This document shows positions 14,369-42,128 of a DNA stretch of 64,000 nucleotides, in pieces (position 1 is the first letter of the stretch; each line of letters opens with the position of its first letter). The stretch comes from an uncultured Pelagibacteraceae bacterium (GTDB lineage Bacteria > Pseudomonadota > Alphaproteobacteria > Pelagibacterales > Pelagibacteraceae), in the NCBI GenBank assembly GCA_902594235.1, contig CACJLJ010000003.1, positions 70,526 through 134,525 on the forward strand, given 5' to 3'. The notes beneath the pieces are model-generated. The model did not search any database. It saw only the letters and a program-made list of their open reading frames with translations, and had not been told where the DNA came from. The translations under genes were made by a program, and so were the position numbers.

Positions 14369-14442
14369 TGGTACCTTGGGTAGGTTCTGCCCCTACGATT
14401 TCGGATCCACAAACCGACGTGATACTATTTCACCACCAAGGC
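14369..14442 (-). tRNA. tRNA-His(GUG), 74 nt, no G-1, non-canonical T-loop
   Basis: Manual fold: GCCTTGG/CCAAGGT acceptor, GTGA/TCAC D-stem, loop TTGTGGA, GTAGG-GGCAGAA-CCTAC T-arm, encoded ACCA. Confidence 0.92.
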
Positions 14443-14503
14443 TCCTTTTAGAGTTATTATCTTATTTTAAGATAGTTTTAAATTATATAATAAATGATAA
14501 ATC

Positions 14504-14549
14504 GCTAGCTTTAGCCAGCATGATAATGATTATGCACAGCTTTAGCTGT
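14504..14549. repeat. Two AGCTTTAGC-centred hairpins/dyads 31 bp apart with a GCAT/ATGC stem between
   Basis: Minus strand: ACAGC-TAAA-GCTGT (14549-14536) and GCTGGC-TAAA-GCTAGC (14519-14504). Confidence 0.6.
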
Positions 14550-14612
14550 TCCTCTAACATATAACTGAAGAGTACAATATTTATATTTTTTATTTATATT
14601 TTTTTTAATCAT
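14511..14612 (-). CDS. Possible 33-aa leader peptide ending HNHYHAG
   Basis: ATG at 14612 to TAA at 14511: MIKKNINKKYKYCTLQLYVRGTAKAVHNHYHAG. No clear SD; could be chance. Confidence 0.25.
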   Translation of the reverse strand: MIKKNINKKYKYCTLQLYVRGTAKAVHNHYHAG

Positions 14613-14652
14613 CAAGAATCTTTTAAACCTAAATTTTTGATATTCAACCCTT

Positions 14653-14694
14653 AAAAAAAGGACACAGGTCTATTTTAATAGATATTGCGCCCTT
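14653..14694 (-). terminator. Intrinsic terminator of cspA
   Basis: AAGGGCGCA...TCTATT/AATAGA...TGTGTCCTT followed by a U-run; the G-U pairs work only on the minus strand. Confidence 0.75.
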
Positions 14695-14710
14695 CTTGTA
14701 ATATTCAAAA

Positions 14711-14923
14711 TTAATCTAATTTTTTTAAATTTACTGCTGAAGGACCTTTTGGACCATCTTCTAATGTAAACTCTAATTTATCTCCTTCATTTAAATATCT
14801 CATACCAGCTGCTTTTACTGCAGACGCGTGTACGAAAGCATCTTTTTCTTTGTCATCCCTTTCGATAAAACCATAACCCTTTTTACCGTTAAACCACTTA
14901 ACTTTACCCTGTATTGTACTCAT
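14711..14923 (-). CDS. cspA: Cold-shock protein
   Basis: [14 protein letters not shown] (RNP1), AFVHASA (RNP2), [10 protein letters not shown]. Confidence 0.93.
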
Positions 14924-15005
14924 CTTGTTTTTTAGTCCTTTTTGTTATTTATTTTTTATTGGAGGTTAAATAGTTTTTTATTAATTTCAAGATGTAATGT
15001 TGTGA

Positions 15006-15080
15006 TGGTGCCTCGGGAAGGATTCGCACCTCCGACACAAGCCTTTTCAGGGCTCTGCTCTACTCCTGAGCTACCGAGGC
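15006..15080 (-). tRNA. tRNA-Phe(GAA), 75 nt, with A18 and G55
   Basis: GCCTCGG/CCGAGGC acceptor, GCTC-AGGAGTA-GAGC D-arm, loop CTGAAAA, GGAGG-TGCGAAT-CCTTC T-arm, ACCA. Confidence 0.95.
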
Positions 15081-19194: not shown

Positions 19195-19268
19195 GCTCCT
19201 GTAGTTAAATGGCATAACAAGTCCTTGGTAAGGACTAGTTCCCTGGTCAGTACAGGGTGGGAGCACCA
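19195..19268 (+). tRNA. tRNA-Thr(GGU), 74 nt, non-canonical T-loop
   Basis: GCTCCTG/TGGGAGC acceptor, GTTA-AATGGCA-TAAC D-arm, AGTCC-TTGGTAA-GGACT, CCCTG-GTCAGTA-CAGGG T-arm, ACCA. Confidence 0.9.
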
Positions 19269-42038: not shown

Positions 42039-42128
42039 TGGCGGAGAGAATGGGATTCGAACCCATGAAAGGATTGCTCCTTTACACACTTTCCAAGCGT
42101 GCGCCTTAAACCACTCGGCCATCTCTCC
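42039..42128 (-). tRNA. tRNA-Ser(GGA), 90 nt, canonical elbow
   Basis: GGAGAGA acceptor, GG in D-loop, TTGGAAA anticodon loop, long variable arm, TTCGAAT T-loop, GCCA. Confidence 0.97.

Follow-up and report, generated by a model that had tools for sequence, protein, structure and literature searches.

Two tRNAs of an uncultured Pelagibacteraceae bacterium, tRNA-Phe and tRNA-His, carry A18 and G55 where ordinary tRNAs carry G18 and U55, and the two changes very probably form an alternative, mutually compensating solution for the elbow contact in what are fully functional housekeeping tRNAs. In an ordinary tRNA, G18 of the D-loop inserts between T-loop bases 57 and 58 and touches pseudouridine 55. 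In textbook accounts, this G18-Psi55 interaction is a near-invariant tertiary contact, and Psi55 is the most conserved tRNA modification. The window, i.e., the whole 64,000-nucleotide stretch of DNA that was analysed, belongs to a genome designated G000. Its tRNA genes considered here are as follows.

15006..15080, minus strand: tRNA-Phe(GAA), found by ARAGORN, Rfam RF00005 (62.6 bits), our own scanner and direct reading
14369..14442, minus strand: tRNA-His(GUG), found by Rfam RF00005 (47.0 bits), our own scanner and direct reading; not called by ARAGORN
19195..19268, plus strand: tRNA-Thr(GGU), for comparison, found by ARAGORN, Rfam and our own scanner
42039..42128, minus strand: tRNA-Ser(GGA), for comparison, found by ARAGORN and our own scanner

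Written with square brackets around its D- and T-loops, tRNA-Phe reads GCCUCGG UA GCUC [AGGAGUA] GAGC A GAGCC CUGAAAA GGCUU GUGUC GGAGG [UGCGAAU] CCUUC CCGAGGC A CCA, the CCA end being encoded. Its D-loop resolves into A14 G15 G16 A18 G19 U20 A21, with A18 at 15064 and G19 at 15063, and its T-loop into U54 G55 C56 G57 A58 A59 U60, with U54, G55 and C56 at 15028, 15027 and 15026. The sequence of tRNA-His is GCCUUGG UG GUGA [AAUAGUA] UCAC G UCGGU UUGUGGA UCCGA AAUC GUAGG [GGCAGAA] CCUAC CCAAGGU A CCA. Here, A18 and G19 lie at 14426 and 14425, and G54, G55, C56 and G58 at 14391, 14390, 14389 and 14387, respectively. Rfam cmscan delimits the gene to 14372-14442 on the minus strand, and the encoded CCA extends it to 14369. 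The discriminator is A73 and the base at -1 is A; that is, G-1 is not encoded, as in tRNA-His of the RRCH type. Both tRNAs form the cloverleaf of a type I elongator, with a 7-bp acceptor stem and D-, anticodon and T-arms; all stems are paired, as judged by our scanner, and both score above the Rfam gathering cut-off (29 bits). About 560 bp separate the two genes, and between them is a cold-shock-like gene. ARAGORN calls three tRNAs in the window (Phe, Thr and Ser); tRNA-His is invisible to it, although found by Rfam at 47 bits, and automated annotation may show such genomes as having no tRNA-His.

The identity of position 18 in Phe and His follows from G19, which has to face the retained C56, so that the preceding A is base 18. 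An alternative register of the AGGAGUA loop, with its GG as 18-19, was rejected: it loses R15 and places an A opposite C56. As to the two comparison tRNAs, tRNA-Ser(GGA) has a wholly canonical elbow (AGUGGUUUA / UUCGAAU, with G18 G19 and U55 C56). In tRNA-Thr(GGU), the D-loop AAUGGCA has G18 and G19; its T-loop GUCAGUA has U55 and C56 but G54 and G58. The earlier note had read the D-loops as AATAGTA (His) and AGGAGTA (Phe) and the T-loops as GGCAGAA and TGCGAAT, and from these had assigned A18 and G55; direct reading, Rfam and our scanner all agree with it. The sequence likewise bears out its statements that Thr and Ser keep G18 and U55 and that all four tRNAs keep G19/C56.

The pairing of the two changes holds across the genome. 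The G000 assembly (1.19 Mb in 12 contigs, 96.6% complete) contains 32 tRNAs, the identical set being returned by Rfam and by our cloverleaf scanner, which requires U8, A14, U33, C56 and at least eight G-C pairs and gave no false positives in G000. This stricter version was used instead of a looser, earlier cloverleaf scan that gave 226 matches, mostly false, in the AT-rich genome. A18 is present in exactly 3 of the 32 tRNAs, and G55 in exactly those three: Phe, His and Val(GAC). Were A18 and G55 placed independently, the chance of their coinciding in this way would be 1 in 4960. The third variant gene is outside the window, on another contig:

G000:C1:195179-195253: tRNA-Val(GAC), A18/G55, loops AAUAGUA / AGCGUAA

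In all three, the G18/U(Psi)55 contact is absent, A18 and G55 standing in its place, while G19 and C56 are kept, so that the G19-C56 Watson-Crick pair is preserved. These molecules remain tRNAs, G18/U55 being a conserved feature of the family and not what defines membership in it. At 54/58, where ordinary tRNA has the U54-A58 reverse Hoogsteen pair, their bases are U54/A58 in Phe, G54/G58 in His and A54/U58 in Val(GAC). The three genes are dispersed, with no head-to-tail tRNA island, and all lie at conserved syntenic sites. The other 29 tRNAs keep G18 and U55: 28 have a D-loop GG and a T-loop UUCRANN, and the twenty-ninth is Thr(GGU). One member of the 32, tRNA-Leu(CAA) at G000:C3:147996-148077, is the only one without an encoded CCA end.

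G000 has a single tRNA-Phe gene and a single tRNA-His gene, and a closed relative, G058, likewise has 32 tRNAs with a score profile matching that of G000. G000 therefore has no Phe or His acceptor other than the variant tRNAs, which for this reason must function in translation.

Relatives within Pelagibacteraceae were sampled as Phe and His genes from about 50 genomes and as five near-complete tRNA sets. The tRNA alone and whole tRNA sets were used for this, since a 712-bp DNA query covering the two genes matched mostly the cold-shock gene. tRNA-Phe is A18/G55 in genera g1, g2, g5 and g7 (AGGAGUA/UGCGAAU or AGUAGUA/UGCGAUU) and G18/U55 in g12, g13, g14 and g17 as well as in two g1 genomes. For tRNA-His, 13 g1 genomes have A18/G55, with the T-loop GGCAGAA or AGCGUAA, and nine further g1 genomes have G18/U55 at the same syntenic site. 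An independent A18/G55 tRNA-His is found in G012 of genus g12 (AGUUAGUUA / UGCAACU). In G037 of genus g17 it is tRNA-Tyr that is A18/G55, and its loops (AGCAGUCAA / UGCGAAU) differ from the canonical Tyr loops of its relatives by those two bases only. No gene with one of the two changes alone, A18/U55 or G18/G55, was found among the Phe, His, Val and Tyr orthologues of the family sample. This distribution points to at least five separate origins of A18/G55 within Pelagibacteraceae. The covariation of 18 and 55 that the earlier note had proposed to look for in this genome and its SAR11 relatives is present in this sample: the three A18 tRNAs of the genome are the three with G55, and the orthologues sampled from the family are never mixed.

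Where the variant Phe genes differ from one another in the acceptor stem and T-stem, the substitutions are fully compensated and A18/G55 is retained, as is characteristic of a selected, folded RNA. This bears on the explanation that A18 and G55 are neutral mutations unconnected with each other, errors of sequencing or marks of decaying tRNA pseudogenes, for which one could cite the AT-rich, reduced genome and the failure of ARAGORN to call tRNA-His. Over 30 independently assembled Pelagibacteraceae genomes, of which several are closed, have the same bases, in accord with the earlier note, which had doubted sequencing error. Moreover, the variant genes are the only Phe and His acceptors, their stem substitutions are compensated, and the covariation of 18 and 55 across lineages, described next, is extreme. 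These data refute an origin by neutral drift, error or decay, leaving it virtually no probability.

For a broad scan, one genome per GTDB species was searched with a 7-nt D-loop in which A18 was fixed and positions 54 and 55 were free; at least 120 loci matched. Besides SAR11, the matches listed include Verrucomicrobia, CPR bacteria, Chloroflexi, Planctomycetota, Elusimicrobia, cyanobacteria, Actinomycetota and DPANN archaea. The listed matches are of many different isoacceptors, and position 55 is G in almost all of them; exceptions with A18 and U55 among those listed are, e.g., L192, L223, L245, L272 and L285. The same pattern was run on IMG/VR viral contigs, with counts taken from the matches listed, and again position 55 is G in nearly all of the A18 matches listed. 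Bystander tRNAs in the listed viral loci (n = 272) comprise 193 with G18/U55, 59 with A18/G55, two with G18/G55 and two with A18/U55.

From the matches listed, 681 unique cellular and viral tRNAs were clustered at 80% identity within anticodon, giving 458 clusters. Clusters without a pattern-selected member that have a purine at 18 and U or G at 55 number 372 and divide into 108 A18/G55, 259 G18/U55, 2 A18/U55 and 3 G18/G55. The Fisher p for coupling of 18 and 55 is ~1e-87. Phylogenetic dependence among the clusters makes this figure an overstatement and indicative only, but the direction of the coupling is not in doubt. Single-change clusters number 10 for A18/U55 and 3 for G18/G55. Since a few A18/U55 and G18/G55 tRNAs do exist, neither single change is absolutely lethal. 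Over 100 independent tRNA lineages of other phyla and of phages have A18/G55, with 18 and 55 switching together. The compensated A18-G55 elbow that the earlier note had proposed from two tRNAs is strongly supported by this joint switching, here and in the orthologues of relatives.

Closer to the window, among genomes sampled from its phylum outside the family, G18 with G55 occurs in 0 of about 400, and A18/G55 with the same D-arm type in 0 of 150. By these samples, the swap is rare in ordinary Pseudomonadota, yet recurrent across life. In 72 of 101 unique sequences, the T-loop pentamer that accompanies A18/G55 is UGCGA or UGCAA; GGCAG, AGCGU/AGCAU and CGCGA make up the rest.

Some of the listed loci are dense tRNA arrays. 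Four on contigs of Verrucomicrobia MAGs (L193, L209, L212 and L250), together with L265, hold up to 16 genes in 8 kb; their 10 to 15 tRNAs are nearly all A18/G55, with T-loop types as in SAR11. Such arrays, and the 59 of 272 viral bystanders noted above, would be accounted for if the altered elbow let a tRNA escape something that recognises the canonical D/T-loop corner, be it a tRNA-targeting toxin, a defence nuclease or a phage factor. There is a parallel in that phages carry tRNAs resistant to anticodon nucleases. We nevertheless consider escape very improbable: no elbow-directed nuclease is in evidence here, the exposed G19-C56 face is unaltered, and in SAR11 the change is located in ordinary single-copy genes. 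A phage origin of the SAR11 A18/G55 genes was also considered and set aside, as the viral A18/G55 tRNA-Phe genes differ throughout, with no sign of recent transfer.

The scans also turned up a further rare elbow class, G18/C55, in seven clusters, five of them without pattern selection; nearly all are viral (L375, L379, L384 and L387). One viral contig, L381, carries an A18/G55 tRNA-His with A73, without G-1 and with GUGA/UCAC as its D-stem. This tRNA belongs to the alphaproteobacterial type, and its D-arm resembles that of the SAR11 variant tRNA-His. Streptomyces and relatives (L174, L177, L184, L185, L200, L206 and others) have tandem copies of a tRNA-Gly(UCC)-like gene, conserved across species, with the D-loop AGUAGUA and the T-loop UGCGAUU or UGCAAUC. 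Their T-stem is unpaired in the standard register (CAGUG / CCUGU), and because of this mispairing they were left out as clean examples of A18/G55.

As to the enzymes that act on the T-loop, neither TruB model (TIGR00431, PF01509) has a match in G000. The operon infB-rbfA-truB-rpsO-pnp is intact in G012 and G027. In G000, about 30 bp separate rbfA from rpsO, and truB has been cleanly deleted from the operon. The site is outside the window:

G000:C3:174866-175473: truB deletion site (relatives: L033, L034)

Of the 60 Pelagibacteraceae genomes with a completeness of at least 90%, 40 have no detected truB gene. It is missing from every sampled member of g1, g2, g4, g5, g8 and g13 and present in all members of g12, g14 and g17. 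In model searches alone, G000 also has no match to TrmFO (TIGR00137), weak MnmG-like matches included, and none to a TrmA/RlmD-type m5U methyltransferase (PF05958).

These losses suggest another explanation, namely that the swap is an adaptation to, or a consequence of, losing T-loop modification enzymes during streamlining, the G18-U55 contact being weak without TruB. The truB-less G000, with its three variant tRNAs, fits this, as do truB-positive genomes, which have none or one. The comparison, however, covers six tRNA sets with small counts from closely related genomes, and it has A18/G55 tRNAs on both sides of the truB divide: one each in truB-positive G012 (His) and G037 (Tyr), and just one each in truB-negative G041 and G022. 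Therefore, the swap does not depend on truB loss. Further, 29 of the 32 G000 tRNAs keep U55 with no TruB, and A18/G55 is common in the tRNA arrays of phages and in large, non-streamlined genomes. Enzyme loss as the driver of the swap is, in our judgement, improbable. The earlier note had seen the swap as fitting a streamlining of tRNA modification. That view has partial support: the deletion of truB and the lack of TrmFO and TrmA-type matches speak for it, and the distribution of A18/G55 speaks against it. Its accompanying remark that G55 needs no pseudouridylation is trivially true.

We return to the reading of A18/G55 as a compensating elbow solution. A mechanism is suggested by T-loops in other RNAs. 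A riboswitch T-loop screen with a phylogenetic survey gave the consensus YGNRA (UGNRA 88.7%, CGNRA 10.9%), in which the receptor contributes a near-invariant adenosine that inserts between positions 4 and 5, with two hydrogen bonds to the sugar edge of G2; tRNA-type UUCRA and rRNA-type GGAAG were set as separate T-loop groups (bioRxiv 10.1101/2022.12.26.521914). G18-Psi55, for its part, is a single-hydrogen-bond pair, and RNase P, the L1 stalk and T-boxes recognise the G19-C56 face (PMC4810234). We propose that the variant elbow is rebuilt on the generic T-loop rule, i.e., YGNRA plus an intercalating A. The T-loop pentamer U54-G55-C56-R57-A58 would receive A18 from the D-loop, and A18 would take the place of G18 between the T-loop bases, contacting G55. 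The outer face that RNase P and the ribosome read, G19-C56, would be unaltered. Such a tRNA would be independent of TruB because it has no U55 to isomerise. A18/G55 probably arises repeatedly as a double substitution and is then retained by selection.

An A is indeed present at the position homologous to the intercalating G18, and the covariation of 18 and 55 argues for a contact between them. We infer the three-dimensional geometry of A18-G55, and any gain in stability, by analogy. The pentamer of tRNA-Phe, UGCGA, fits YGNRA; GGCAG of tRNA-His and AGCGU of tRNA-Val do not. The T-loops of the latter two (GGCAGAA and AGCGUAA), altered at 54 and 58, may fold differently or use a further variant.

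A stronger version of this proposal would make A18-G55 a distinct, modification-independent elbow class, one that folds without Psi55 or the chaperone action of TruB and is favoured where the T-loop enzymes of the host are unavailable, as for phage tRNA sets in any host or in the truB-less SAR11 clade. We regard this version as doubtful, though conceivable. If true, such an elbow is in use in the only tRNA-Phe and tRNA-His of cells that are among the most abundant in the ocean.

The variants can be set against several known systems. In the generic T-loop with an intercalating A, known from FMN and cobalamin riboswitches, RNase P and rRNA, a non-canonical 1-5 pair closes a U/C-G-N-R-A pentamer; the A18/G55 tRNAs resemble it in that their UGCRA or CGCGA/CGCAA loops always come with A18. 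The tRNAs differ in that the motif sits inside a tRNA, in that position 3 stays C for G19-C56, and in that GGCAG of His and AGCGU of Val fall outside YGNRA. The staphylococcal non-proteinogenic tRNA-Gly species of cell-wall synthesis likewise are without canonical D- and T-loop nucleotides; they have U18U19 or C18U19, have lost both elbow pairs, and are extra copies that avoid EF-Tu (PMC4574755). In contrast, the SAR11 variants keep G19-C56, have 18 and 55 changed together, and are sole isoacceptors in translation. The tRNA arrays and phage sets with A18/G55, including the long arrays of cyanobacteria and others, show the same paired change with the T-loops UGCRA, GGCAG, AGCRU and CGCGA. They are, however, accessory, clustered and probably mobile, whereas the SAR11 variants are dispersed, single-copy, essential genes on the chromosome of a free-living host and are polymorphic between close relatives. 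Finally, alphaproteobacterial tRNA-His of the RRCH type has A73 and no encoded G-1, as does the tRNA-His here, and is reported for most SAR11 strains; that study treats the acceptor end and HisRS, with the T-loop, D-loop and G55 unmentioned (PMC3937112).

The earlier note would have taken it as a refutation if the pattern were common and already described in other bacteria, and of this one half applies. The swap does recur elsewhere and is not specific to SAR11, although a published description of A18-G55 or an equivalent was not found in a literature search whose reach did not extend to older subscription literature. Reviews of the tRNA elbow and the T-loop treat G18/U55 as conserved, without mention of G55 (elbow review PMC4810234). 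What this locus adds is a variant elbow in tRNAs that are, for their amino acid, the only ones of a free-living cell, a natural polymorphism of that elbow between close relatives at one syntenic gene, and its coincidence with a clean truB deletion. A second, strictly co-varying elbow solution has arisen many times, and it suffices in a free-living bacterium whose only tRNA-Phe and tRNA-His carry it. The case is a natural one of compensatory evolution at a tertiary contact of RNA that can be tested directly, and it ties the elbow of tRNA to the T-loop rule that holds generally in other RNAs. On the practical side, annotation pipelines may under-call such genes, as ARAGORN does with tRNA-His. 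Since truB is cleanly lost from much of Pelagibacteraceae, most tRNAs of these very abundant cells are predicted, in addition, to be without Psi55.

Positions 54 and 58 vary as well. Within one genus, tRNA-His genes with A18/G55 (L003-L008 and L014-L016, compared with window positions 14369-14442) carry either GGCAGAA or AGCGUAA on an identical T-stem, a coordinated change of 54, 57 and 58 between close relatives. The T-loop of tRNA-Thr(GGU) is GUCAGUA in the window and UUCGAUU in the g1 genome G041. GUCAG is found in seven unique tRNAs of the sample, and 54/58 also seem to switch pairwise (U-A, G-G, A-U and C-A).
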